Counted from the stretch's first letter, positions 10,743-56,651 are shown. The stretch is DNA of 64,000 bases from Gammaproteobacteria bacterium (GCA_050306135.1 JBNLGQ010000042.1:1233-65232); one strand, 5' to 3'. Made by a program: numbers and translations. The notes: generated by a model from the sequence alone, not told the origin.

Positions 10743-12065
10743 TTATTCGCCTTTAGCCCAGCTTGAATCGGCGCGTCGTTTTTTATCATAGTCATGCCAG
10801 GAGTTACTCCAGTTATCGACCGGAGCAATGGCATCTACAGCGATGGGACCATGAATACCTCTTGCCTTAGTTTCGTCGACTATCAGGGGAAGATCCTTCA
10901 CTCCGTCACCATTTTCCAACTGTCTAATCGCGTTACGCAGAATCTTACGGTATTTCTTTATAGCTACATCCGTGCTGCCCAGGTGCTCATCCGTTCTATC
11001 CTGAATCTGCCCCATAGATTCACAGGCCCATTGATCATGCACGTTGATATCCATTCCCATACCGGTATAGGTTTTGTTTTTCTGCTCTTCAGGATCAAAC
11101 AGATAGTTATTCGCCTTGTTTCGGATAGGAGCATAGTCGGGTACGGTTTGCGATTCCAGGCGTTGTGCTCGCATCTTTTCCTTATCTACCGGATCAGTGA
11201 AGCTGGTAAACATCGAATACCAGTAACAGTTATAATCGTCGATGGGAACATGCCACTGGGTTATCGTCATTTCTCGCGACATGGGGATATGAATAGCACA
11301 GGGGAAAACCTGATTGGTAATACGTACATGCATTTGCCCATTGTTTAGATTACGTAGCGTGGTCAGGCGAAGGCCCCAGTCGGTCTCTTCTACTCGAATC
11401 TCGGGGCGGTCAAATTCGCGTAGTACTTTGGTCAGCGGAATACCCGTATCTGCGGCTGAATCACGAAACTGTTTGCCATAGCCCTCTTCAGGCGCTTCAT
11501 CTTCAGCAAAGCGATGCAGGAAGGATGCATGCACAGGATCGATGCCGACTTCCAGAGCCTGTAGCCAGTTACATTCCCAGAGACCTTTGTAAGAGAACAC
11601 GTGAGAGTCAGGCGCAACAAAACAATCAAAATCTGGAAATGCTGGCGCTTCGCCCTCTCCCATGAATGCCCAGATGATGCCATTCTTTTCGATCGCGGGA
11701 TAGGCTTTGATTTTCACATTTTCATGCATACGGGAACCTTCAGGCTCACCCGGTTGCCCTGTACATTGTCCTGTAGCATCAAAATGCCAGCCATGAAAAG
11801 GGCAACGCAGGCCATTGTTCTCAACACGGCCTATACACAGGTCGACTCCACGATGGGCACAGCTACGTTGAACCAGAGCTGGTTTTCCATCCTCGGTACG
11901 GAACAGTGCCAGGTTTTCACCTAACAAACGAACAGGTACTACAGATCTACCGAATTCCAGTTCTTCACTTAACGCTGCTGGCATCCAGTATTGACGCATT
12001 AAAGTGCCTGCAGGAGTACCTGGACCGATACGGGTTATTTCATCATTCTTTTGCTGGCTCATCAT
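10743..12065 (-). CDS. Rieske non-heme iron oxygenase, catalytic (alpha-type) subunit, single-subunit GbcA/CntA/Stc2-like architecture
   Basis: Rieske motif CAHRG...CPFHGWHF and mononuclear iron motif DPVHASFLH. No beta-subunit or reductase gene is adjacent. Confidence 0.8.
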   Translation of the reverse strand: MMSQQKNDEITRIGPGTPAGTLMRQYWMPAALSEELEFGRSVVPVRLLGENLALFRTEDGKPALVQRSCAHRGVDLCIGRVENNGLRCPFHGWHFDATGQCTGQPGEPEGSRMHENVKIKAYPAIEKNGIIWAFMGEGEAPAFPDFDCFVAPDSHVFSYKGLWECNWLQALEVGIDPVHASFLHRFAEDEAPEEGYGKQFRDSAADTGIPLTKVLREFDRPEIRVEETDWGLRLTTLRNLNNGQMHVRITNQVFPCAIHIPMSREMTITQWHVPIDDYNCYWYSMFTSFTDPVDKEKMRAQRLESQTVPDYAPIRNKANNYLFDPEEQKNKTYTGMGMDINVHDQWACESMGQIQDRTDEHLGSTDVAIKKYRKILRNAIRQLENGDGVKDLPLIVDETKARGIHGPIAVDAIAPVDNWSNSWHDYDKKRRADSSWAKGE

Positions 12066-12082
12066 AGCGTGAATTCTCTTTA

Positions 12083-12544
12083 TTATTTAACCGTTGTATC
12101 AACCTTCTTATCAACTGATAACATGGTTCTAATGTCTTCTGGTACCGGCTGCGCCACCATTTTTTCTGGATTATCCGGGTCAGAGTAACCCCAAACTCGA
12201 ACTTCGTTGCCTAGCGCTACTGGATCAGGGTCATCACCCTGCCTGAATTCATGGCTAACCACAAACGAGGTATTACCAAATTTTTCTACTTTTGAGCTTA
12301 GCTCTGTGATATCGCCAAAATATAACGGACGCTTAAATGCCATATTACTGGCAACCAGAGGGAATCCCCTGAAGAGTTTATCTTCACGAATCTTTTGTGG
12401 TAGATCAAAACCGGCAGCCTGAAGCATTGAATGCGATCCACCATCCATCCAGATGTAATAATGGGGGTTAAAGATAATACCTGCAGCATCGCAGTGTGCC
12501 CATTCGACTCTAATTCTTTGAATAGCTGTGAACATTGATAACAA
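12083..12544 (-). CDS. Hotdog-fold acyl-CoA thioesterase (4HBT/YbgC-like)
   Basis: 153-aa protein with the typical 4HBT N-terminal region (HCDAAGIIFNPHYYIWMD). Confidence 0.6.
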   Translation of the reverse strand: MLSMFTAIQRIRVEWAHCDAAGIIFNPHYYIWMDGGSHSMLQAAGFDLPQKIREDKLFRGFPLVASNMAFKRPLYFGDITELSSKVEKFGNTSFVVSHEFRQGDDPDPVALGNEVRVWGYSDPDNPEKMVAQPVPEDIRTMLSVDKKVDTTVK

Positions 12545-12672
12545 TCCTACAATGAGTTAACGCAGTCATGGCGCGTGATAGCGTGGCAATCTTTTACAGC
12601 ATTTCCAATTGTTGATAGATTGCCGCGCTACCGCTCGCAATGACAGAAATGGTTGATGTCAGCTAAGACACC

Positions 12673-13383
12673 TTAAATACCCAGATAACGTGATTTTAAT
12701 TCAGCATCATGAGTCAGCAATTCTGAATTACCTTGCCAGACCACCTTACCTTTTTCAACGATATAGTGTTGGTCGGCGATATCGGCAAATTCATCTATAT
12801 TTTTGTCGATGAGTAATATAGTCAAGCCGGTTTCTTTTAACTGTTCGAGGCGCCGCCAAATTTCCTGACGAATCAATGGTGCTAATCCTTCGGTAGCTTC
12901 ATCTAGAATCAACAGCCGTGGATTAAGCATAAGCGCTCGTCCTATTGCCAGCATTTGCTGTTCTCCACCCGATAACTGGTTGCCCATATTATCCAGTCGC
13001 TCACTCAAACGAGGGAAAAACTCGAGGACTTTTTCCAGAGTCCAGGGATTACTGCTACCACTGTAATTGGCTGCAGTAGCTATCAGATTTTCAAGCACGG
13101 ATAAATTCGGAAAAATCTGTCGGCCTTCAGGTACCAGACCTATTCCGAGTTGTGCGACCTCATAAGCGGGCCTACCCGATATCACTTTGCCCCCAAACTT
13201 TATTTCACCACTACGAATGGACATAATACCCTGTATAGAAGAAACCGTAGTCGTTTTCCCCATGCCGTTACGACCTATCAGGGTAGTCACCTCACCTTCC
13301 TTACACTGCAGAGTCATTCCAAATAGGGCCTGAATCGTGCCATAAAAAGATTCTACATTGTTCAACTCAAGCATGGCTGTCAC
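12673..13383 (-). CDS. Branched-chain-amino-acid-type ABC transporter ATP-binding protein (LivF-like)
   Basis: Walker A GRNGMGKTT, signature LSGGEQQMLAIGRAL, Walker B LILDE. Confidence 0.85.
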   Translation of the reverse strand: MTAMLELNNVESFYGTIQALFGMTLQCKEGEVTTLIGRNGMGKTTTVSSIQGIMSIRSGEIKFGGKVISGRPAYEVAQLGIGLVPEGRQIFPNLSVLENLIATAANYSGSSNPWTLEKVLEFFPRLSERLDNMGNQLSGGEQQMLAIGRALMLNPRLLILDEATEGLAPLIRQEIWRRLEQLKETGLTILLIDKNIDEFADIADQHYIVEKGKVVWQGNSELLTHDAELKSRYLGI

Positions 13384-14119
13384 CTAAGTAGGCCTGTTGC
13401 ACTTCTATATTGTTACGAATGTTTTCTACCGTATCAGTTGCAATCACATGTCCATTCACCAGCACAGAGAGTTTATCAGCCATACGGAATACGGCATCCA
13501 TATCATGCTCTACCAGCAGGATAGTGATATCACCCTTTAGACGATTTAATATTTCCACCATCACTTCGCCCTCTTCCTTACCCATACCAGCCATAGGTTC
13601 GTCAAGTAGCATCATGCGTGGCTTCATCGCCAGCGCCATTGCGAGTTCGAGCTGGCGTTGTTCACCATGGGATACATTAGCCGCAATACTTTGCGCTCTA
13701 TCTTCCAGTCCCAGTTGCGCCAGACATTGCATAGCAGCATCTTTCATCTTTGTATCATTTTTGACGGGTTTCCAGAAGCGGAATGAATGACCGCTGGTAC
13801 CCTGGATAGCTAGCATGACATTTTCCAGTAATGTCATTGGTAGTACTACGCTGGTAATTTGAAAAGATCGAGCCAGACCCTCATGAGCTCGACGTGCCAT
13901 ACTGTAATCGACAATACTATGGCCACCAAAGCGAATATCACCTGAGTCGGGTTTAATCTGCCCGGAAAGCTGAGAAATCAAGGTTGTTTTACCTGCTCCG
14001 TTGGGACCAATAATGGCATGTATTTTTCCTTCTTCGACCATTAAGTTCACATCATCGGTAGCACGTATACCGCCAAAACTTTTGTTAAGCCCGGTAACCT
14101 CAAGCAGATGATTAGCCAT
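13367..14119 (-). CDS. Branched-chain-amino-acid-type ABC transporter ATP-binding protein (LivG-like)
   Basis: Walker A GPNGAGKTT, signature SHGEQRQLELAMAL, Walker B LLDEP. Overlaps the downstream ATPase gene by 17 nt. Confidence 0.85.
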   Translation of the reverse strand: MANHLLEVTGLNKSFGGIRATDDVNLMVEEGKIHAIIGPNGAGKTTLISQLSGQIKPDSGDIRFGGHSIVDYSMARRAHEGLARSFQITSVVLPMTLLENVMLAIQGTSGHSFRFWKPVKNDTKMKDAAMQCLAQLGLEDRAQSIAANVSHGEQRQLELAMALAMKPRMMLLDEPMAGMGKEEGEVMVEILNRLKGDITILLVEHDMDAVFRMADKLSVLVNGHVIATDTVENIRNNIEVQQAYLGDSHA

Positions 14120-15081
14120 TACTTAACTTCTCCTTTTCTATCCAGCAGTGTTAGCCAGCCATGGATACCACCCTTGCCAAACATGACCAGTGCAACCAGT
14201 AACACACCAAATATCAAATGCCAGTAAATAGTGATGGCAGACAGGCCTTCTTCTAACAGTACAAAAATCATGGTGCCAATTAATGGACCCAAAAAAGAAC
14301 TCACGCCACCAATGATAGCCATAAACATCAGTTCACCAGAACGTGCCCAGCTAATCATGTCAGGACTGATAAAGCCTGAAAAATTACCCATTAACACACC
14401 AGCCAGACTACACATCATTGCTGAAATTACATAACAGCTCAGGCGATAACGATAGGTGTTAAAACCCAGTGCCTGCATACGTTCTTCATTATGTTTTGAA
14501 CCTACAATAACGCGACCAAAACGAGCCATCACCAGGCGCCAGGTAAAAAACAGAGACAGTAGCAGGACAGCAAATATCCAGTAATAAAGCTGAGTATTAC
14601 TCTCCATGCTAATCAGTTCTGGGAATTCACTACGTGAGTAAATTACGAGACCATCATCCGCGCCATATTCTTCCAGACTTACAAAGGTGAAATACACCAT
14701 TTGGCTGAAAGCCATGGTGATCATAATAAAATATACGCCTTTGGTGCGTAGGCTGATTGCTCCGGTTATTAAAGCAAAGGTCCCACTTACCGAGAGTGCG
14801 AGTGCCAGGTGTAACCAGCCATTATAATAATCATAATAAGAAGGTATACCGACGCAGTAAGCGCCAATACCAATATAAGCAGCATGCCCCAGACTCACCA
14901 TGCCACCAAAACCCAGAATCAAATTCAAACTAATAACGGCAATACTGAGGATTAACGCTCGACTCAATACATCAAGATAAAAAGGTTTATCAATCCATTC
15001 AAATATAAATGGTGCCAGTGCTAGTAATATCAGCAATATAGCGTAAATACGACCGGAAGTACTTTTTGGGAAAAACACCAT
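14119..15081 (-). CDS. ABC transporter permease (LivM-like)
   Basis: Polytopic membrane protein. Start and stop overlap the neighbouring genes (ATGA junctions). Confidence 0.8.
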   Translation of the reverse strand: MVFFPKSTSGRIYAILLILLALAPFIFEWIDKPFYLDVLSRALILSIAVISLNLILGFGGMVSLGHAAYIGIGAYCVGIPSYYDYYNGWLHLALALSVSGTFALITGAISLRTKGVYFIMITMAFSQMVYFTFVSLEEYGADDGLVIYSRSEFPELISMESNTQLYYWIFAVLLLSLFFTWRLVMARFGRVIVGSKHNEERMQALGFNTYRYRLSCYVISAMMCSLAGVLMGNFSGFISPDMISWARSGELMFMAIIGGVSSFLGPLIGTMIFVLLEEGLSAITIYWHLIFGVLLVALVMFGKGGIHGWLTLLDRKGEVK

Positions 15082-16004
15082 TACTTCTTCCCTGCCGGGG
15101 GAAACAGCCCCTGTGGTCGAAAGGCCAGCACCGCAGCCATTAGTATATAAACCAGCATTGCTGACAATGCAGGTGCGGCAGTTTCAGCGTAGTTATTAGG
15201 CATAGCCAGTTTAAGTAACACATCAAGGTAGGAACGGCTCAAGGTATCAATCAAACCCAGAATCATAGCCGCATAAAATGCCCCTTTAATCGACCCTATG
15301 CCTCCGATAATAACCACCACGAATGCGATAATAATGATATCGTTACCCATGCCTATACTGGCTTCGGTAATTGGAGCAATAAGCATGCCTGCCAGTCCAG
15401 CCATGGCTGCACCCAGTGCAAATACGATGAGGAATAATCGATTAATATTCACGCCCAGAGCTTCAACCATTACTCGATTTGAAGCCCCCGCTCTTATCAG
15501 CATACCCAGACGTGTTTTTGAAACCAGAAAGTAAAGTGCTGCCGCTACCACCAATCCTGCAAATATAATCAACAGTCTGTAGGTAGGTAGCTCGACTCCA
15601 GCTAATGTGATTTGACCATTTAGAGATGCAGGTAGACGTATTGCCATACCAGATGCACCCCAGATTAAATGTACCAGAGTATCGAATATTAATATCAGAC
15701 CAAAAGTAACCAGCACATGGTCAAGATGATCCGCGCGGTATAACTTTCTGACAATTGCCCATTCGACGATGGCACCAATAATAAAAACTCCAATCAGTCC
15801 TAGCACTATACCAAGCAGAAATGAGCCACTATAGGCAACTACACTACCGCAGAAATAGGCACCAATCATATAGAAGGAGCCATGAGACAGGTTGATAAAG
15901 TCCATGATGCCAAAGATCAGGGTCAATCCAGAGGCCAGTAAAAACAATAACAACCCGAGCTGCAGCCCATTCATCAATTGAGAGATGAGAAGATTCCAGT
16001 CCAT
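15081..16004 (-). CDS. ABC transporter permease (LivH-like)
   Basis: Polytopic membrane protein of the HAAT family pattern, in operon. Confidence 0.8.
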   Translation of the reverse strand: MDWNLLISQLMNGLQLGLLLFLLASGLTLIFGIMDFINLSHGSFYMIGAYFCGSVVAYSGSFLLGIVLGLIGVFIIGAIVEWAIVRKLYRADHLDHVLVTFGLILIFDTLVHLIWGASGMAIRLPASLNGQITLAGVELPTYRLLIIFAGLVVAAALYFLVSKTRLGMLIRAGASNRVMVEALGVNINRLFLIVFALGAAMAGLAGMLIAPITEASIGMGNDIIIIAFVVVIIGGIGSIKGAFYAAMILGLIDTLSRSYLDVLLKLAMPNNYAETAAPALSAMLVYILMAAVLAFRPQGLFPPAGKK

Positions 16005-16081
16005 AATGCTTACCAGGATTTTTTTGGAGAAGTTAACCGGTTCCGAACAAGCTTCAGAACCGGGAGAAGAGAGCTAACTTT

Positions 16082-17272
16082 TTATTTCATCTTACATTGA
16101 GAGGCGTAAGGATCCTGATGGTTTGTGTATACTGTACTTACGATTTTTGTGGTCCAGCGACCTTCTGCGTCAGCAACAACTTCACGAAGGTAGAAATTCT
16201 GGATAGGCATATGGTTATTGCCATAGGTATATCTACCTCGAACAGAATCAAAATCAGCTGCTTTTAATGCCTTACGAATAGCATCTTTATCTTTTAAATT
16301 ACCACCAACCGCTTCAACAGCAGACTTAATCAGCATGATTGAATCATAAGATTGTGCACCATAGAACGATGGGTACTTACCATACTTTTTCAGGTAATCA
16401 GATACAAATCGTTTATTGGTTGGGTTATCCATATCGGGGGACCATTCCTGAGTATTCTTGGTACCCAGCACACCTTTTAAACCTGCCTGCTGTAACTTAG
16501 GTAATGCGATTGAATCAACAGTAAAAACGGTATATAGCGGCATCTCATCCTGCAGACCGGCCTGTTGATATTGTTTAATAAAAGCACCACCGGCTTTACC
16601 AGGATAGAATATGAAGATAGCTTCAGCACCAGATGCCTTGGCTTTTGCCAGTTCAGCAGAAAAATCGAGCTGGGCATCTGCACCCCACTTGGTCAGATCC
16701 TTACCCACTACCTTCCCTTTGAAGGTATTTTCTACGCCAGCCGCCATGTCTTTACCCGCAGCATAGTTAGGGACCATGATATAGATCGATTTAACGCCTT
16801 GTTGATTCAGATACTCACCCATTGCCATCGGCGTCTGGTCATTCTGCCAGGAGGTAGAGAAGAAGTTTTTATTACAACGCTTGCCTGCGATTTGGGAAGG
16901 CCCTGCATTTGTACTGATAAGGAATTTGTCTGCTCTTACTACTGAATTCATGGATGCCAGTAATACATGAGACCAGAGATAACCTGCAACAAAATCAACA
17001 TCATCCTGTTTAACCAGCTTATCTGTCTTTTGCTTGCCCACATCAGGTTTAAAGCCATCGTCTTCCATGATTAATTCAACATCCAGGTTGCCCATTTTGT
17101 TACCAATATGGTCGAGCGCAATTTCTACTGAATTTTTTACATCTTCACCAATGACACCTGCTGGCGTGGTGAGTGTGGTAACAAAACCAATTTTAACGCT
17201 ATCGGCCTGAGTAACACCGGTCGTAGCAAGAGCTGCTGCGACAACCGCAGTCTGAATTATTTTAGAAAACAT
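16082..17272 (-). CDS. Periplasmic substrate-binding protein, Liv/amide/urea-type (family 4 SBP)
   Basis: Signal peptide (MFSKIIQTAVVAAALATTGVTQA) on a roughly 370-aa periplasmic binding fold. It is the first gene of the minus-strand operon. Confidence 0.8.
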   Translation of the reverse strand: MFSKIIQTAVVAAALATTGVTQADSVKIGFVTTLTTPAGVIGEDVKNSVEIALDHIGNKMGNLDVELIMEDDGFKPDVGKQKTDKLVKQDDVDFVAGYLWSHVLLASMNSVVRADKFLISTNAGPSQIAGKRCNKNFFSTSWQNDQTPMAMGEYLNQQGVKSIYIMVPNYAAGKDMAAGVENTFKGKVVGKDLTKWGADAQLDFSAELAKAKASGAEAIFIFYPGKAGGAFIKQYQQAGLQDEMPLYTVFTVDSIALPKLQQAGLKGVLGTKNTQEWSPDMDNPTNKRFVSDYLKKYGKYPSFYGAQSYDSIMLIKSAVEAVGGNLKDKDAIRKALKAADFDSVRGRYTYGNNHMPIQNFYLREVVADAEGRWTTKIVSTVYTNHQDPYASQCKMK

Positions 17273-17440
17273 CTCACATCCTCTTTTACAGTTTATTTAT
17301 TAGTTATTGATAAGGGCTATCAATAAGTATTACTTTTTGTTTCTGAGTATCAATACTGCCACCAACCGATTATCTCTACAAACATTGTGTGAGCTTCATG
17401 CTGCCAGAGTCACTACAGGGTTGAGTACCAAAACCGTTAA

Positions 17441-17520
17441 AATGCATTATTATGCATGCGTCTGGATACTAATCTCTGCAATATGCACTGTCAAGAACTA
17501 TACTGCATGCAAATAGGTCA
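17441..17520. promoter_or_regulatory. TGCA-rich operator-like region containing a TGCA-N6-TGCA element (ATGCATTATTATGCAT at 17442-17457)
   Basis: Read directly: about 7 TGCA tetramers in 80 bp, including TGCA-ttatta-TGCA. This motif type is the one recognised by BzdR/BoxR regulators. Confidence 0.4.
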
Positions 17521-17760
17521 ACTGGATTACTGTGAAAATTATTGATCGAATTCTTTGTAACCTATATTAGAGTAAACAGGATATAACTATTAAGCTCATG
17601 AAAAAGAACTGATCAAAGCATTTTTTGCTATCAACATAATATCTCCGAAGAGATTATATTGATAATTACCATGTATTATATTTCTCATTCATATTGTGAA
17701 TGATAGTAATTAATAATGCATGAAAATTTGAAAACATAATGTCCCAAATTCCATCTTACC

Positions 17761-17816
17761 TGCATTATAATTTCGCTCATTGCACCTTCATTGCACCTTC
17801 ATTGCATTAGCTTGCA
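17761..17816. promoter_or_regulatory. Direct repeat array (cattgcacctt x2.7), TTGCA every 10-11 bp, upstream of the MFS gene
   Basis: tcattgcacct tcattgcacct tcattgcatt agcttgcact read directly. Helical-turn phasing suggests a regulator binding array in the 5' leader of the MFS gene. Confidence 0.4.
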
Positions 17817-17917
17817 CTATATTGCTACACTCACTGCCGATATGTGAAGCTGATCTATTTGAAAGAAATCACTATAAACACCCTAAATCTCTCCGCTTTT
17901 CTGGGAATAGCAGTTAT

Positions 17918-19099
17918 ATGAATAAAACCCACTGGACCAACGTCGGGATCGCATTTTTTGCTGGTTGTATAACCGCCTTCCAGATTGGTAAAGCCTTTGC
18001 TTCTCTAGCATTAATTATTGACGAACTCTCCCTTAGCCTGGTTCAGGCGGGCTCTCTGCTATCTTTATTCACCCTGATCGCCGCCCTGGCAGGCTCAGGA
18101 TTTGGACTACTGGCTGATCGCATTGGCCACTTACATATGGCACTTGCTGGACTGGTCATCTCTGCCAGCGGTGCTTTTCTGGGTTCAATGGCAGATGGGC
18201 TGTCATTTCTGATGTTTTCGCGTCTGGTCGAAGGATTCGGTTTTATCATGTCTATTGTTGCCCTGCCCTCGTTAATGAGCCGTTCTGCTAGCGATGAAGA
18301 TAGACCTCTGGTGATGGGCATCTGGGCAGCTTTTATGCCAACAGGAATCGGTCTATCGATGATCATTACACCGCTACTACTGGAGTTACATGGATGGCGT
18401 GGGTTATGGAATGATATAGGATTAATTATGCTTGCCTGGGCAGTGATTATATATTTTGCTTTTCGTAACCATAGAAAAAAACATGCAGTACCCACGAACT
18501 CACTCAACTTCATCAACAGTATTCTTAGGATAGGTCCATTGCTAGTGGTCACCGGGTTTATCTGTTACTCGACTCTGTACCAGTCACTTACTGCTTTTCT
18601 ACCGACTATGCTGGTTCAGAACTATGCGGTAGCTATCGATAAAGCCGCGCATTTTGGTGCCATCGTAGTTGTTGGCAACATCATTGGTAATATTTCCGCA
18701 GGCTGGTTGATAGGTCGAGGTATGGCACCCTGGAAGGTCGTTACTATGGCTTTTAGCGCCATGTTAGTCTGTGCCTCGATGGTATTTGCCAGCATGACAG
18801 ACCCAGTGACAAAGGTCATTGCTGGGTTTCTGTTTTCAGCATTTGGGGGCCTCTTTCCAGGTACGGCTTTTGTGCTCGCATCACGTTTCTCACCCAGTCC
18901 ATCGCATATGGCGCTCATGACAGGCCTGATTTTACAGGGTGCGGGCATTGGGCAAACTTTGGGCCCTATGATGGTTAGCTCGGTAGTTGAATATAATGAT
19001 AACTGGAATTATGCCATCCTGGTCGTCGTCTTAATGGCTACTATAGGTCTTAGCTGTGCCTGGCAGTTGAGCAAAACTAAAGAGGCTTCAAATAGCTGA
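17918..19099 (+). CDS. MFS transporter (12-TM)
   Basis: Polytopic protein with MFS loop motifs. The start was reassigned to the ATG at 17918 (MNKTHWTNVGIAFFAG). The track ORF begins 138 nt upstream inside the repeat array. Confidence 0.75.
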   Translation: MNKTHWTNVGIAFFAGCITAFQIGKAFASLALIIDELSLSLVQAGSLLSLFTLIAALAGSGFGLLADRIGHLHMALAGLVISASGAFLGSMADGLSFLMFSRLVEGFGFIMSIVALPSLMSRSASDEDRPLVMGIWAAFMPTGIGLSMIITPLLLELHGWRGLWNDIGLIMLAWAVIIYFAFRNHRKKHAVPTNSLNFINSILRIGPLLVVTGFICYSTLYQSLTAFLPTMLVQNYAVAIDKAAHFGAIVVVGNIIGNISAGWLIGRGMAPWKVVTMAFSAMLVCASMVFASMTDPVTKVIAGFLFSAFGGLFPGTAFVLASRFSPSPSHMALMTGLILQGAGIGQTLGPMMVSSVVEYNDNWNYAILVVVLMATIGLSCAWQLSKTKEASNS

Positions 19100-19122
19100 C
19101 GAAAGGGTCACATAACACTTAA

Positions 19123-20601
19123 ATGCAAACCTATAAATATTCAGCAAGCATCATACTCACGCGTGGGCCGGATGATAACCCGGAAGTTTATCTTGCTCGT
19201 CGTGCCCCCAAGATTAAAATCTTTGGTGATTTCTGGGTATTCCCGGGCGGTAATGTCAGCGAGATTGATTGTCACAGAGAGGATGATACCTTAGAGCAGG
19301 TTTTTGCACGCTGTGCAATTCGTGAAGCTTTTGAAGAGTGTCAAATTTTGTCAGCTACATTAGGCAAATCTTTTAGTTCTGATGAAAAACAAAAGCTTAA
19401 AAACACGTTGACTCAATCACCTGATAGCTGGAAATCTTTCATCTCTGATTTTGATCAAAACTTCAAACAGTTAATACCGGTATTTCGCATCAGCACTCCA
19501 CCTTTCACACCACTACGGTATGACACACAGTTTATGCATGTACGTGCAGTAGATGATGAAGTGCCTTCGATTGATAATTATGAGCTAGTCGAAGACTGCT
19601 TTATTAAGCCTGCAGCAGCAATCAATGCCTGGCTTAAAGGTAAAATGAAAATTGCACCACCTGTATTACAGATGTTAAAGCTACTGGATGAAAAAAAGTT
19701 ATCCGGTTTCTATGAACTAACGGCTTCAGCAAGCGAAGCATTACAGCAAGGTGATTTGCATCAGATATATTTTTCACCAGGGATATTCATAGCTCCTCTA
19801 TTAACCGATACCATTCCACCTGCTACAACCACCAATACCTTAATTGTTGGCACAGAGAACCTTTATATAGTTGACCCTGCCACGCCAGATGAAAGAGAAC
19901 AGCAACGTTTATTCAAACAGCTGGATCAACTGCTTGGCAATGGCTGCAAACTTAAAGCAATTCTCCTCACACATCACCATCCTGATCATGTGGCTGCGGT
20001 TAATGCACTAAGCCAGCGATATCAATTACCCGTACGAGCTCATGAATTATGCTACCCCAGAATTGCAAAAGGGTTTATTAAAGGGGACGCACTAAAAGAT
20101 GGTGATATTCTTGAACTAGGGACTGCTCCAGATGGGACAAAAGGCTGGCAACTAACTGTATTGCACACACCCGGGCATGCGGTAGATCATTTATGCTTTA
20201 TCGAAAACAGATATCAATCAGCTATTGTTGGCGATATGTTATCAACGGTGTCAACCATTCTGATCAACCCACCTGAAGGTCACATGCAAACCTATCTGAA
20301 TAGTTTACATCGACTACTGGCATGCAATATCAAGGCACTATATCCAGCGCATGGTCCCGCGAAAAGTGATGGTGCCGGTTTGATTAAGTATTACATCAAA
20401 CACCGAGCAGATCGTGAACAGGAAACACTGTCTGCATTGACAAAAACGCCTCAAACCATCGAACAGATATTGCCCAGCGTTTACAATGATGTACCTGAGT
20501 CGGTATACCCAATTGCGAAGCGTTCTCTGCTAGCGGAGCTTATCAAGCTGGAAGAAGAAAACAGGTGCTGCCAGAGTATACAGGGTTGGAAGTTAACGTG
20601 A
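19123..20601 (+). CDS. Two-domain hydrolase: N-terminal NUDIX-like domain fused to C-terminal MBL-fold metallo-hydrolase
   Basis: A NUDIX-box-like segment (GGNVSEIDCHREDDTLEQVFARCAIREAFEECQI) lies in the first 100 aa. The MBL motif THHHPDHVAAV (HxHxDH) plus downstream His/Asp ligands lie in the C-terminal half. The gene starts 23 nt after the MFS stop. Confidence 0.65.
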   Translation: MQTYKYSASIILTRGPDDNPEVYLARRAPKIKIFGDFWVFPGGNVSEIDCHREDDTLEQVFARCAIREAFEECQILSATLGKSFSSDEKQKLKNTLTQSPDSWKSFISDFDQNFKQLIPVFRISTPPFTPLRYDTQFMHVRAVDDEVPSIDNYELVEDCFIKPAAAINAWLKGKMKIAPPVLQMLKLLDEKKLSGFYELTASASEALQQGDLHQIYFSPGIFIAPLLTDTIPPATTTNTLIVGTENLYIVDPATPDEREQQRLFKQLDQLLGNGCKLKAILLTHHHPDHVAAVNALSQRYQLPVRAHELCYPRIAKGFIKGDALKDGDILELGTAPDGTKGWQLTVLHTPGHAVDHLCFIENRYQSAIVGDMLSTVSTILINPPEGHMQTYLNSLHRLLACNIKALYPAHGPAKSDGAGLIKYYIKHRADREQETLSALTKTPQTIEQILPSVYNDVPESVYPIAKRSLLAELIKLEEENRCCQSIQGWKLT

Positions 20602-47936: not shown

Positions 47937-48353
47937 TTACAAAACCTTTTCCAGTGCCTGCTTGATAGGGGCTGGTATTTCTGCAGATTTGCGTGTTTGC
48001 GGGTCAAAGAAGACTTCCGTAGTTTCATAGCTTGCATGCACCTCCCTGCTGTCGACGTGCAACATGCGCTGTTTGAAAGTGCAACTTTTACGCCCAATTC
48101 TATCCAGTAAACTTTCTACGATTATTAAGTCTCCTGCGACCAGTTCCTTCAGGTACTGTATATTCGCCGAAGCTGTTACGGTATGAACAGCAAACTCATC
48201 CTGCATTTTCTGGTGACTGCCCCAGTAAAGAGGCCAGATGTGAAACGCGGCATCATCAAAAAAATGACTGTACCAGCGAACATTCATATGACCGAAGCTA
48301 TCGCAAAACCAGGGGTGTACTACTCCGCGTAGAGTTTCTATGGGTTCAGACAT
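47937..48353 (-). CDS. Hotdog-fold thioesterase family protein
   Basis: 138-aa 4HBT-like protein (VVHPWFCDSFGHMNVRWYSHFFDDAA). Confidence 0.6.
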   Translation of the reverse strand: MSEPIETLRGVVHPWFCDSFGHMNVRWYSHFFDDAAFHIWPLYWGSHQKMQDEFAVHTVTASANIQYLKELVAGDLIIVESLLDRIGRKSCTFKQRMLHVDSREVHASYETTEVFFDPQTRKSAEIPAPIKQALEKVL

Positions 48354-48373: not shown

Positions 48374-49291
48374 TTATTCTGCAGTGGTCAGATACTCACC
48401 ACATTGATTAGATATTTCCTGAACACAATCGATCAACGTTCTATTTGAAGTATCCAGTTCATAGTCAGCCTGGCTATACTCAGCTTCTCGTTCCTGCAGA
48501 ATCAATTTTAAATCTTCCATGGCTTCTTCGTTATTAGCCATTGGCCTCAGATCACCCTGAGCCAACACACGATTCATATGCTCCTCCGGTGATGCTTTTA
48601 TCCAAACTGTATAGTAGGAATCAAGCAGAAGCTTAAAAGTGTCAGACATTGCGACTATGCTTCCTCCTGTTTCAAGCACGATATTTTTCTGATTCCTGAT
48701 CACTTCTTCCAGTGCCTGCTTTTCCATCCGTCGATAGGCTTTTTGACCACCTAAGGAGAACAGTTCTCCAGTTGTCATTTGGGCATACTTCTCGATTAAA
48801 TCACTAATCTGAACAAACCTGACGCCATACTTATCAGCAAGCATACGTCCCAGGCTGGATTTACCCGCCCCACGCAGGCCGATTAAAGCCACACCATTGA
48901 TTTGTTGTGTTGACTTACTAAACCGACGTTTAAGTAATGATAGCGCTGTATCCTGTTGTTCATGATCGAGACGCATCAGGTAAGTCATTAATGCTGCATT
49001 TCCCTTGCGGAAATCACAGTCCGGGAATAACTCTGGAATCTTGACCCCCATGCTATTGGCTATTTTCCAAAGCATGTGTACCGATATATTCGCCTTACCG
49101 GTTTCCACCTGTGCAATATAACGTTCAGAGACACCTGACTGGCGTGACAGGTCTTTACGGATCATACCTCGACTGGTGCGTATCGCTCGAATGCGATTAC
49201 CTATGTCTATGATGTACTCCTGAAACAGCGCATCATCCTGATCATTATCGCCCTGCTCCAGGGCTATTGTTTCTTGTTTACTTCCACTCAT
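48374..49291 (-). CDS. boxR: BoxR/BzdR-type regulator: N-terminal XRE-family HTH fused to shikimate-kinase-like P-loop domain
   Basis: HTH (IRKDLSRQSGVSERYIAQVETGKANISVHMLWKIA) plus a shikimate kinase-like GLRGAGKSSLGRMLA domain. Adjacent to the boxABC genes. Confidence 0.75.
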   Translation of the reverse strand: MSGSKQETIALEQGDNDQDDALFQEYIIDIGNRIRAIRTSRGMIRKDLSRQSGVSERYIAQVETGKANISVHMLWKIANSMGVKIPELFPDCDFRKGNAALMTYLMRLDHEQQDTALSLLKRRFSKSTQQINGVALIGLRGAGKSSLGRMLADKYGVRFVQISDLIEKYAQMTTGELFSLGGQKAYRRMEKQALEEVIRNQKNIVLETGGSIVAMSDTFKLLLDSYYTVWIKASPEEHMNRVLAQGDLRPMANNEEAMEDLKLILQEREAEYSQADYELDTSNRTLIDCVQEISNQCGEYLTTAE

Positions 49292-49382
49292 ATGTATTAA
49301 TCTCGTGATTACGAATTCCGTCAGCGACCGGACTGGTATGAATTATAATACATATTCGTTGAAGTATGCTATTTCTCCCTGA

Positions 49383-54420: not shown

Positions 54421-54469
54421 TCCGATCGCCTCTTCAATATGGTTTCTTATAATGTGAGGTGAATTATAA

Positions 54470-54545
54470 TGCATTATAGTTCATATGCAAGATATTTTAA
54501 GTATTTAGTTGCATTATTGTGCATTTTGGTGTGTATTAAAATGCA
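54470..54545. promoter_or_regulatory. TGCA-rich operator-like region upstream of boxC, with TGCA-N6-TGCA at 54510-54523 (TGCATTATTGTGCA)
   Basis: Five TGCA tetramers in 76 bp, read directly. This is the motif class bound by BzdR/BoxR repressors. Confidence 0.45.
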
Positions 54546-54798: not shown

Positions 54799-56400
54799 TT
54801 ACGATCCACTCTTTTCAAGCTCTCTTAACTTGAAGCGCTGTATCTTTCCTGTGGCTGTTTTGGGTAATTCATCAACAAATTTGAACCAGCGAGGATATTT
54901 ATAGGGTGCCAGAGTATCTTTTACATGCTGTTTGAGAGCAGCACTCATTTCATCGCTTGCTTCATAGCCCTCTTTAAGCACTACATAGGCGGCAGGCTTG
55001 ATTAAATGATCCGGATCTTCTTTTGCAATGACAGCGACTTCCAGTACCGCTTCATGCGACATCAGTGTGGACTCAACTTCTATAGGTGAAACATAGATAC
55101 CACTCACCTTAAGCATATCGTCATTACGACCTGCATAAACGTAGTAACCATCATCATCCAGATAGTATTTATCACCACTTCGGGTCCATTCACCCAAAAA
55201 TGTAGAACGTGTTTTCTGGCGATTATTCCAGTAACCATTTGCAGCACTTGGTCCACGTACCTGTAACTCACCAGACTCATTAGGCTTATCAATAATATCG
55301 CCCTGATCGTCGATAATCTTCAGATCATAACCGGGAACAGCCTTGCCTGTAGTGCCATAACGTATATCACCAGGACGATTGGAGAGGTAAATATGCAGCA
55401 TTTCGGTGGAGCCAATACCATCAAAAATATCCACACCAAAATGCTCATACCAGCGTTTACTCAGTTCTTCTGGAAGCGCCTCACCTGCTGATGTGCACAG
55501 ACGAATACTCACCTCATCTCTAGCCGGCAATGACTTACTGGCAAGCATGCCTCCATACAGCGTGGGTACGCCATAAAAAATACTCGGCTGATGATCGATT
55601 AAACGCTTACTTACCGATTCAGGTGTTGGACGTTCTGCCATCAGTATGGTGGTTGCTCCCACAGACATAGGGAAACTTAATCCGTTACCCAGGCCATAGG
55701 CAAAAAACAGTTTGGCTGCGGAAAAAACAACATCATTTTCATTGATGTTCAGAATGGGTTTTGCATATAACTCAGCAGTATTGATTAAACTGGAATGAAT
55801 GTGGACAGTTCCTTTCGGAGAGCCGGTTGAGCCTGATGAATACAGCCAGAAACAGGCATCATCAGAGACCGTTTCCACTATTTCAAACTGTTCTGATTGC
55901 CCCTGCATAATGCAAGCTAGAGAATCTTTCTCAGTCTCTGGTTTTCCTGAAACAATGATCTGCTCCAGGGTTGAGACTCGATCAAGCAAAGGGGCGAAGG
56001 TGGCGAGTAAAGGCTCAGAAATAATAGCGATTCGTGCACGGCTATCGTTGAGCATATATTCGTAATCTTTTTCTGATAACAGCGTATTTGCCGCTATAGG
56101 AATAATGCCCGCTTTTATAGTACCAAGGAATACGGTAGGGAAATCGATATTATCGTGCATACACATCATCACACGCTGTTCACGTTGCAGGCCGATTGAT
56201 GTGAGTGCGTTTGCAAGCTGAGAGCTGCGCTTGTCCAGGTCCGCATAGCTGTATTGGCCCTGGTCATCGATAAATGCGATTTTATCACCACGATTCGCCT
56301 GCAGATTTCTTTGTAGCAAGTCATAGGCAGCATTATATTGACGTGGAATTTCAACCTCAGGAGGCGATACATTGTGATTGGCTGAACTTAATTGTGGCAT
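54799..56400 (-). CDS. bclA: Benzoate-CoA ligase (AMP-forming)
   Basis: AMP-binding signature LYSSGSTGSPKG, 533 aa. Immediately upstream of boxCBA in the same orientation. Confidence 0.8.
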   Translation of the reverse strand: MPQLSSANHNVSPPEVEIPRQYNAAYDLLQRNLQANRGDKIAFIDDQGQYSYADLDKRSSQLANALTSIGLQREQRVMMCMHDNIDFPTVFLGTIKAGIIPIAANTLLSEKDYEYMLNDSRARIAIISEPLLATFAPLLDRVSTLEQIIVSGKPETEKDSLACIMQGQSEQFEIVETVSDDACFWLYSSGSTGSPKGTVHIHSSLINTAELYAKPILNINENDVVFSAAKLFFAYGLGNGLSFPMSVGATTILMAERPTPESVSKRLIDHQPSIFYGVPTLYGGMLASKSLPARDEVSIRLCTSAGEALPEELSKRWYEHFGVDIFDGIGSTEMLHIYLSNRPGDIRYGTTGKAVPGYDLKIIDDQGDIIDKPNESGELQVRGPSAANGYWNNRQKTRSTFLGEWTRSGDKYYLDDDGYYVYAGRNDDMLKVSGIYVSPIEVESTLMSHEAVLEVAVIAKEDPDHLIKPAAYVVLKEGYEASDEMSAALKQHVKDTLAPYKYPRWFKFVDELPKTATGKIQRFKLRELEKSGS

Positions 56401-56651
56401 CGACTATTCCTCAGTTATGGTTAATCAATTACCCGGTTTTCTTATTGCTGTGTTGATTATTGCACCGGTTTAATCTTTATGAATTATTATGCAGCCCAGT
56501 AATATTGTCAATGCATTATAATACATTTAAACTTTAACTCGAACTGATCGACAAGGCACTCAGTCGCTGTATTTTTGGTTGAAAATCATCCTTTCCCCTG
56601 CGCGCCAGGTAGCGTGAACTCAGCGTCCAGATAGCGCATGGGTATATATCA

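Follow-up and report, generated by a model that had tools for sequence, protein, structure and literature searches.

The subject of this analysis is the intergenic region at positions 17273-17917 of a 64,000-nucleotide stretch of DNA ("the window") from an uncultured gammaproteobacterium, which lies between an ATP-binding cassette (ABC) uptake operon and a gene pair encoding a major facilitator superfamily (MFS) transporter and a fusion of NUDIX and metallo-beta-lactamase (MBL) domains. We conclude that the region is probably a control region of the BoxR regulon, in which two palindromic operators, O1 and O2, lie on the promoter of the ABC operon, repression would be relieved by benzoyl-coenzyme A (benzoyl-CoA), and the MFS protein would act as an accessory transporter. 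The TGCA repeats found here had been assigned, in a reading of the sequence alone, to the MFS and NUDIX-MBL genes; the BoxR-type motif is real, but the strong pair of sites sits on the promoter of the divergent ABC operon, an operon which that reading had overlooked, and not on the MFS / NUDIX-MBL pair. Since the ABC operon starts leftwards at 17272 and the MFS gene runs rightwards, the stretch between them is a divergent control region. It and the genes on its two sides are as follows.

17273-17917: divergent intergenic control region, 645 bp, 33% G+C
12083-17272, minus strand: Liv-type ABC uptake operon (Pfam Peripla_BP_6, two BPD_transp_2, two ABC_tran, 4HBT)
16082-17272, minus strand: substrate-binding protein (SBP) gene of the operon (Peripla_BP_6)
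15081-16004 and 14119-15081, minus strand: its two permease genes (BPD_transp_2)
13367-14119 and 12673-13383, minus strand: its two ATPase genes (ABC_tran)
12083-12544, minus strand: 4HBT thioesterase gene closing the operon (4HBT)
17918-19099, plus strand: MFS transporter, 393 amino acids (Pfam MFS_1)
19123-20601, plus strand: NUDIX-like / MBL (LACTB2-type) / winged-helix fusion protein, 492 amino acids (Pfam Lactamase_B, BLACT_WH)

The evidence that carries this conclusion is a matrix scan. BoxR and BzdR recognise TGCA repeats with spacers of 1, 6 or 15 nt, chiefly in the form of the palindrome ATGCACTATAGTGCAT (PMC6449761; PMC6678401), and their sites occur in multiples, mostly at distances of 3-5 helical turns (PMC6449761). 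From 126 predicted BoxR/BzdR sites of Betaproteobacteria (Table S3, PMC6449761) we built a symmetric position weight matrix, on which the training sites score between 7.6 and 22.8 bits with a median of 17.0. The window contains 11 matches of at least 12 bits, against 2.8 expected in random sequence of the same size, for which the best score is 14.7 ± 1.8 bits. The ten best matches all lie in 17273-17917, in intergenic regions of the box cluster or, in one case, at a coding site in the string of ABC genes:

54469: 20.7 bits, boxC leader (first)
17442: 20.2 bits, intergenic region 17273-17917 (second)
57983: 18.0 bits, upstream of the PnbB-like gene (third)
17493: 17.8 bits, intergenic region 17273-17917 (fourth)
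56511: 17.3 bits, upstream of bclA (fifth)
54459: 17.2 bits, boxC leader (sixth)
54509: 17.1 bits, boxC leader (seventh)
11994: 15.4 bits, coding (eighth)
56479: 15.2 bits, upstream of bclA (ninth)
49338: 14.7 bits, upstream of boxR (tenth)

Intergenic matches of at least 12 bits are confined to five regions, namely 17273-17917 and the sequences upstream of boxR, boxC, bclA and the PnbB-like gene. The matrix, built from another class, thus finds every box transcription unit, and is therefore valid for this genome. With the matches at 17442 and 17493 among the four best in the window, the proposal that the repeats are BoxR/BzdR-type operators, sharing their motif with the box genes 37 kb away, held up. 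So did the architecture suggested for the regulator, a helix-turn-helix (HTH-XRE) domain joined to a shikimate-kinase-like domain: the boxR open reading frame (ORF) matches Pfam HTH_3 and SKI and passes the NCBIfam model NF006015 with 347 bits (cut-off 204).

The two strong matches in the control region are O1 and O2, which flank the best promoter-like match of 17200-18000, with 10 of 12 consensus positions.

17442-17457: BoxR-type operator O1, palindrome ATGCATTATTATGCAT, 20.2 bits, second best in the window
17493-17508: BoxR-type operator O2, AAGAACTATACTGCAT, 17.8 bits, overlapping the predicted -35 box
17466-17494, minus strand: predicted sigma-70 promoter of the ABC operon, TTGACA (17494-17489), 17 nt, TAGTAT (17471-17466)
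17346-17395, minus strand: conserved block of ~50 nt in the predicted 5' leader of the ABC operon

O1 is identical at 15 of 16 positions to the published site ATGCAtTATtaTGCgT. The distance between O1 and O2 is 51 bp, or about five helical turns, so that the pair combines palindrome scores within the training range with whole-turn spacing and, as described below, conserved orthologous positions, in a genome that encodes the cognate BoxR and carries the motif at boxR and at the box catabolic genes. O2 would cover the -35 box and O1 approximately positions +2 to +17 of the predicted ABC transcript, whose start we infer from the promoter hexamers; a site on the -35 box and another on the transcript start form a geometry typical of repressors. 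Within the leader block, CAATACTGCCA, AACCG and CTCTACAAA are invariant in four aligned sequences while the flanks diverge. An Rfam scan of the whole window gave no match, and the block is therefore no known RNA element. Just upstream of the SBP ribosome-binding region there is also an inverted repeat, TTGATAAGGGCTATCAA (TTGAT-N7-ATCAA, 17309-17325), which is kept in the relative L081 and not in L001. A sigma-54 or FNR/CRP reading of the leader block and of this inverted repeat was considered by eye and dropped, as the spacing fits neither consensus.

Whether the pair belongs to the ABC operon or to the MFS gene can be judged from its position in related loci, where spacing and distances to the two start codons (O1 first, then O2) are as follows.

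Window: pair spacing 51 bp; 177 and 228 nt to the SBP start; 468 and 417 nt to the MFS start
L083 (same species): pair spacing 51 bp; 177 and 228 nt to the SBP start; 468 and 417 nt to the MFS start
L081 (NUDIX-MBL 85% identical): pair spacing 49 bp; 180 and 229 nt to the SBP start; 383 and 334 nt to the MFS start
L001 (NUDIX-MBL 79% identical): pair spacing 52 bp; 189 and 241 nt to the SBP start; 550 and 498 nt to the MFS start
L088 (MFS 81% identical): pair spacing 52 bp; 188 and 240 nt to the SBP start; 535 and 483 nt to the MFS start

Across the window and its relatives the pair hardly shifts relative to the SBP gene but moves relative to the MFS gene, and little of the sequence separating the conserved blocks is kept. 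Together these observations argue that the operators are anchored to the ABC promoter. O1 is unchanged in L083 and L081, and L001 and L088 have ATGAATTATTGTGCAC (16.8 bits) at the corresponding place; at the position of O2, L001 and L088 carry AAGCACTATATTGCAT, a stronger match of 20.9 bits, and L081 a site decayed to 12.7 bits. The TGTCAA block of the ABC promoter is likewise kept in L083, L001 and L088. In L081 the promoter hexamers, read by eye, have changed to TTGGCA and GGATCA, boxR survives as four frame-shifted tblastn pieces (11519-13397), only fragments of boxA are left, and boxB and boxC are gone. The joint decay of boxR, O2 and the promoter hexamers is what would be expected if promoter and operators work together with BoxR. 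The box cluster of L081 is thus in decay, although it retains an intact hemerythrin gene and, ahead of what is left of boxR, an intact BoxR site (12363, 19.4 bits). The window, L001 and L081 offer a natural decay series for studying the breakdown of a regulon.

Chance has to be considered as a source of the TGCA tetramers. The first array does contain ATGCA-TTATT-ATGCA, at 17442-17456, and its TGCA tetramers, which had been put at about seven, number six between 17443 and 17511 (starts at 17443, 17453, 17477, 17484, 17504 and 17508). In the second array TGCA recurs at 17761, 17781, 17792, 17803 and 17813 (also at 17717) as described, but the spacing in its core is N7, because the core is an exact 11-bp tandem repeat; an N6 spacing occurs only in the last pair, at 17803-17816. 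The description of the boxC leader, with five TGCA in 76 bp and TGCATTATTGTGCA at 54510-54523, was accurate. The bare TGCA-N6-TGCA pattern is not enriched in the 64-kb window (four matches against 2.5 expected, a count that 14 of 100 shuffled sequences reach), and we replaced this count by density statistics and the matrix scan. At least four TGCA within 80 bp are found at four places in the 64 kb: two in 17273-17917, one in the boxC leader and one in coding sequence. The density comparison with the intergenic background, which the sequence-only reading had named as one way in which its claim could fail, came out in favour of the claim within the window, with 18.6 TGCA per kb in 17273-17917 (18.5 in the boxC leader) against 2.8 per kb in intergenic DNA outside the five candidate-regulon regions. 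Of 20 copies of the extended half-site TGCAYTAT in the window, five lie in 17273-17917 and three within 17713-17820. A further TGCA cluster, at 47982-48112, falls within the thioesterase ORF 47937-48353, gives no matrix match and was rejected as an operator.

These numbers make it highly improbable that the TGCA richness is a by-product of AT-rich composition or simple repeats without regulatory meaning. Such an explanation could draw on the unremarkable count of the bare pattern, on the largely tandem origin of the second array and on the 33% G+C of the region. Against it, other intergenic regions of similar G+C hold 0-5 TGCA per kb, and none of 20,000 simulated 645-mers of intergenic composition reached either 12 TGCA or a pair of matrix sites scoring 17 bits or more; moreover, the 16-bp palindromes match an independently derived matrix and are kept at orthologous positions in relatives whose proteins are 79-85% identical. 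A different TGCA-recognising regulator, such as an XylS/BenR-type activator (TGCA-N6-GGNTA), another XRE protein or a CopG-like protein, would be conceivable given that TGCA cores are common to several regulator families (PMC6678401), and we regard this as improbable too. The TGCA-N6-GGNTA pattern is absent from 17273-17917 and from the box leaders, and its three occurrences elsewhere in the window compare with 2.5 expected. The sites are full BoxR-type palindromes, the motif stands at boxR itself and at every box transcription unit, and the decay of boxR in L081 accompanies that of O2 and the promoter.

We propose that BoxR dimers would bind O1 and O2 cooperatively, by analogy with BzdR/BoxR in Azoarcus, and that occupation of O2 over the -35 box and of O1 over the transcript start would shut the ABC promoter. 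Benzoyl-CoA made by BclA would then release BoxR, and uptake would be induced along with boxCBA, bclA and boxR, where the motif is found as well. The first five genes of the ABC operon are predicted to encode an uptake system for an aromatic acid, with benzoate the likeliest substrate; the sixth encodes a 4HBT acyl-CoA thioesterase. The MFS gene would have its own extended -10 promoter and probably encodes an aromatic-acid transporter; that it may be co-repressed through a weak site and half-sites is the uncertain step of the scheme.

Several observations weigh against this proposal. The matrix derives from computationally predicted sites of another class, so that its validation here is internal, through the matches at box promoters. 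The ABC promoter and its transcript start are predictions that would imply a long leader of ~187 nt. O1 is intact in L081 despite the broken boxR. The MFS promoter has a single full-length site (17812-17827, 11.9 bits), of a strength expected ~2.8 times per 64 kb by chance; this site is present in L083 and L081, and its left half is missing in L001 and L088. Finally, the distant ABC / MFS loci L087, L096, L098, L110, L130, L135 and L143 contain no BoxR-type site. BoxR control of the module would therefore be a trait of the clade, and control of the ABC / MFS module has evidently been rewired between lineages. In some of these seven loci an extra gene stands between the ABC operon and the MFS gene.

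What the ABC system transports can be predicted from its relatives. The operon is of the five-gene Liv type, and its SBP resembles the aromatic-acid-binding subgroup: its closest solved relatives are 4evq/4evr, 4ey3, 4evs and 4f06 (E = 9e-40 to 1e-25), a match at the level of the family. We take these structures to be Rhodopseudomonas palustris binding proteins for benzoate derivatives, with 4evq/4evr presumably RPA0668. The closest plasmid-borne homologue of the SBP, from Agrobacterium tumefaciens (53% identity), shares its operon with genes for a benzoate-CoA ligase family protein, a monooxygenase and an acyl-CoA thioesterase. R. palustris RPA0668 (HbaE) binds benzoate with high affinity (PMC3223731), and in most Betaproteobacteria studied the BoxR regulon contains a putative ABC transporter for benzoate, and sometimes benK too, benzoate transport by these ABC systems being itself a prediction (PMC6449761). 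Relatives repeatedly carry homologues (66-81% identity) of the 4HBT thioesterase at 12083-12544 in their ABC and box loci. In the published tabulation of BoxR regulons a COG824 gene has a column of its own; COG824 is this type of thioesterase. The two 4HBT thioesterases of the window (47937-48353 and 12083-12544) are more credible candidates for relief from CoA esters than the NUDIX-MBL protein.

The MFS side of the control region carries a different set of elements.

17823-17831, plus strand: conserved extended -10 element TGCTACACT (TGnTACACT), the likely MFS promoter
17812-17827: weak BoxR-like site TTGCACTATATTGCTA overlapping the predicted MFS promoter, 11.9 bits, within the training range (minimum 7.6)
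17777-17806: exact 11-bp tandem repeat TCATTGCACCT, 2.7 copies (Tandem Repeats Finder score 60, 100% matches)
17711-17721 and 17761-17771: two isolated BoxR half-sites, TAATAATGCAT and TGCATTATAAT, with 100% and 91% matches to the O1 half-site
17671-17693: conserved block with a weak BoxR-like site ATGTATTATATTTCTC, 10.1 bits in the window and 13.1 in L081

Judged by its sequence and conservation, the extended -10 element is likely to be the MFS promoter; in all five sequences (the window, L083, L081, L001 and L088) TGnTACACT precedes the MFS start codon by 95-139 nt. The MFS-proximal ~110 bp contain three extended half-sites TGCAYTAT against ~0.03 expected, and this excess, together with the weak site over the extended -10 element, makes some BoxR affinity at the MFS promoter plausible. 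Any such affinity would be recent and species-specific. The MFS-proximal site and half-sites are absent from L001 and L088; of the two isolated half-sites, L081 has lost the one at 17711-17721 and L001 has lost both, while the block at 17671-17693 is kept in L001 with no called site of at least 7.5 bits there. The TCATTGCACCT repeat is a recent slippage duplication that multiplied TTGCA half-sites one helical turn apart; it has one copy fewer in L081 (8660-8690) and is missing from L001, and this difference in copy number moves the half-sites on either side by exactly one turn of the helix. On balance, direct BoxR control of the MFS promoter has a chance that falls a little short of even.

These elements bear on the broader possibility that the arrays are BoxR operators for the MFS / NUDIX-MBL pair, instead of or besides the ABC operon, with the MFS protein importing benzoate and the NUDIX-MBL protein servicing CoA esters, which we consider rather unlikely as a whole. 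Besides the half-site excess and the overlap of the 11.9-bit site with the conserved extended -10 element, it gains from the embedding of the MFS family in BoxR-headed operons elsewhere, from the gap of 23 nt without a terminator between the MFS and NUDIX-MBL genes, and from a weak match of the MBL profile to the CoA thioesterase PqsE. The strong operators, however, lie 417-468 nt from the MFS start (334-550 nt in relatives) at a distance that is fixed only with respect to the ABC operon, the MFS-proximal elements are missing in L001 and L088, and part of the second array is the recent 11-bp duplication. The protein evidence also runs the other way: homologues of the NUDIX-MBL protein at 70% identity or less have unrelated neighbours, with box, MFS and SBP genes in none of the 79 distant loci listed, its NUDIX domain scores 11-16 bits where the CoA pyrophosphatase model asks for 134, and its MBL domain reaches 60.9 bits for glyoxalase II against 200.8.

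Returning to the proposal that the ABC promoter is the principal target and the MFS protein an accessory, the idea that the latter imports aromatic acids is supported indirectly by its gene contexts, but the protein fails the model of the AAHS family to which BenK belongs. It scores 48.5 bits with TIGR00895 (cut-off 418.55) over the N-terminal half only, its best partial NCBIfam match, and its homologues are labelled by the sources as "MFS family permease" or as cyanate-transporter-like (CP family). A profile scan of metagenomes yielded 63 loci with homologues and exact look-up another four, and 35 of these 67, all compared with the proteins of the window, have enough flanking sequence to be informative. 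The MFS gene follows box genes on the same strand in 16 of the 35, typically in the order boxR, boxC, boxB, sometimes boxA, enoyl-CoA hydratase, hydroxyacyl-CoA dehydrogenase, thiolase, MFS and hemerythrin, and it stands opposite the same ABC operon in another nine; five loci have only a box-type hemerythrin gene nearby and five nothing related. A box operon or the same ABC operon thus accompanies homologues of the MFS gene in 25 of 35 informative loci, counting contigs that include near-duplicates and represent at least eight distinct contexts, and for this reason a role in aromatic-acid transport is plausible. Such settings hold homologues of 50-70% identity. Where the full box operon is present, strong BoxR sites stand at the head of the operon. 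In L084 the homologue (68% identity) borders a protocatechuate/4-hydroxybenzoate cluster with pcaB, pcaGH, pcaC, pcaD and pobA, and in L143 an enoyl-CoA hydratase gene lies immediately upstream of the MFS gene. From sequence and context we slightly favour the view that the family may consist of aromatic-acid permeases that act like BenK from outside the BenK family. An accessory transporter of the box pathway is a credible description of the MFS protein, whose family had not previously been tied to that pathway; a large unnamed family with hundreds of environmental homologues would thereby become the likely aromatic-acid transporter of the box pathway.

The NUDIX-MBL gene presents a different picture. 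It starts 23 nt past the MFS stop codon with no terminator between, so that co-transcription of the two genes is likely. The protein of ~492 residues is well conserved and has hundreds of homologues. Its invariant residues include REx2EE of the Nudix box, the MBL motif HxHxDH and the histidine and aspartate ligands downstream of that motif; the Pfam NUDIX match lies just below its cut-off. In profile comparisons the C-terminal 250 residues including the winged helix align to human LACTB2 (4ad9, E = 7e-29) and the N-terminal 190 residues to an uncharacterised NUDIX protein, 3qsj (E = 3e-18). The predicted model (pLDDT 81) has a TM-score of 0.77 to 4ad9, and the matches to LACTB2 and 3qsj are to be read at the level of the fold; they gave no pointer to RNA, a glutathione ester or a CoA ester as the substrate. 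GloB and PqsE follow LACTB2 at lower scores as structural relatives of the MBL domain. The NUDIX domain scores 11.3 and 16.0 bits for CoA pyrophosphatase (NF007980, cut-off 134), no better than for MutT, where it is likewise far below cut-off, and the solved CoA pyrophosphatase 1nqy matches the profile at E = 0.037 over 46 residues only; the MBL domain obtains 60.9 bits with the glyoxalase II model TIGR03413 (cut-off 200.8) and 34.2 with NF007597 (421). With both families far below cut-off and LACTB2 closest, the suggested proofreading or recycling of CoA esters finds no support in the domain models.

Comparison gave no support for membership of this gene in the regulon either, as the gene is widespread and has unrelated neighbours beyond the closest relatives. 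Its neighbours change completely at 70% identity or less. A profile search of contigs returned mostly distant Planctomycetota and Actinomycetota, L001 being the sole close relative among the matches listed, and the 79 distant loci listed, which serve as a negative control for linkage, contain no box, MFS or SBP genes. In L084 and L085 (68-70% identical) the gene is divergent from a gene for a 250-residue enoyl-CoA hydratase, followed by AsnC-type and NMO genes. The NUDIX-MBL gene is therefore probably a widely distributed gene that is only locally adjacent to the MFS gene and co-transcribed with it. One could still imagine that an MFS protein replacing BenK and a bifunctional NUDIX-MBL enzyme were recruited together under BoxR, with the MBL domain cleaving the thioester and the NUDIX domain the CoA diphosphate of dead-end aromatic CoA esters, and with the MFS half-sites recently gained by the 11-bp duplication on the same face of the helix; we regard this as a long shot.

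The remaining features belong to the box cluster and its surroundings. The cluster is complete, occupies 47.9-57.9 kb entirely on the minus strand, and runs in the order PnbB-like gene, lactonase, bclA, a 324-bp gap, boxC, boxB, boxA, hemerythrin, boxR and a second 4HBT thioesterase, with gene identities assigned by Pfam and NCBIfam family models.

54799-56400, minus strand: bclA, benzoate-CoA ligase (TIGR02262, 804 bits)
boxC, minus strand (TIGR03222, 914 bits)
48374-49291, minus strand: boxR, HTH-XRE plus shikimate-kinase-like domain (Pfam HTH_3 and SKI)
47937-48353: second 4HBT (YbgC-like) thioesterase ORF, just downstream of boxR
49338-49353: BoxR-type site upstream of boxR, with an identical site upstream of boxR in L001 at 15579
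54459-54524: three BoxR-type sites in the boxC leader, starting at 54459, 54469 and 54509
56479-56526: two BoxR-type sites upstream of bclA, 15.2 and 17.3 bits
57983-58031: two BoxR-type sites (18.0 and 12.5 bits) upstream of the PnbB-like gene, the first in the string PnbB-like / lactonase / bclA

The boxC-leader site at 54509-54524 is identical at 15 of 16 positions to the published site ATGCAtTATtGTGCAT. The ABC / MFS module lies 27-37 kb away from the box genes in the window, whereas the cluster follows directly beyond the NUDIX-MBL gene in L001 (compared at 11477-14626) and L081, from which we conclude that the locus at 17273-20601 and the box genes formerly made up one cluster. The 37-kb separation is due to the ~27 kb of unrelated genes (20649-47900) that lie between NUDIX-MBL and the box cluster; they include an acyltransferase, LemA, an M48 peptidase, chemoreceptors, a 1759-residue DUF3686 AAA ATPase and a U32 peptidase. 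At the other end, the 4HBT gene at 12083-12544 is followed by Rieske and glutamine-synthetase-like genes. The Rieske/LigXa-like oxygenase gene, between the ABC operon and the glutamine-synthetase-like gene, contains the matrix match at 11994-12009 (ACGCATTAAAGTGCCT, 15.4 bits), which falls in its coding N-terminus (GTLMRQYW) and is probably a coding coincidence.

A benzoate ABC transporter controlled by BoxR is already described by comparative genomics, and the arrangement reported here is no new class of mechanism. Its nearest parallel is the BoxR/BzdR system of Betaproteobacteria, including the PN and PX promoters of Azoarcus sp. CIB (Suvorova and Gelfand 2019, PMC6449761), with which it shares the regulator architecture, the palindrome ATGCACTATAGTGCAT, multiple sites, the targets boxC, bclA, boxR and a Liv-type ABC transporter, and the accessory genes for hemerythrin, pfam16155 (PnbB-like), lactonase and COG0824-type thioesterases. 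It differs in that the host is an uncultured gammaproteobacterium of ~44% G+C in which binding is predicted, in that the box genes run in one direction rather than as divergent clusters, and in having no boxD within the window. The ABC operon resembles the putative LivKHMGF-type benzoate transporters linked to box, bzd and hba clusters, such as HbaEFGHI of R. palustris, in its five-gene layout, its Peripla_BP_6 SBP and its link to the benzoyl-CoA pathway, but it carries an attached thioesterase gene, and its ligand specificity is predicted. Like BenK and PcaK (AAHS), the MFS protein is a permease found at benzoate clusters and paired with an ABC system, as in the bzd operon of Aromatoleum, where an ABC transporter is followed by benK (PMC6449761), yet it falls outside the AAHS family. 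Compared with LACTB2 and 3qsj, the NUDIX-MBL protein has both domains fused, an architecture for which no characterised member is known. Taken together, these parallels extend the BoxR operator code and the layout of the regulon from cultured Betaproteobacteria to uncultured Gammaproteobacteria of sediment and marine metagenomes, so that the 16-bp palindrome may be used to annotate benzoate-responsive genes in metagenomes.

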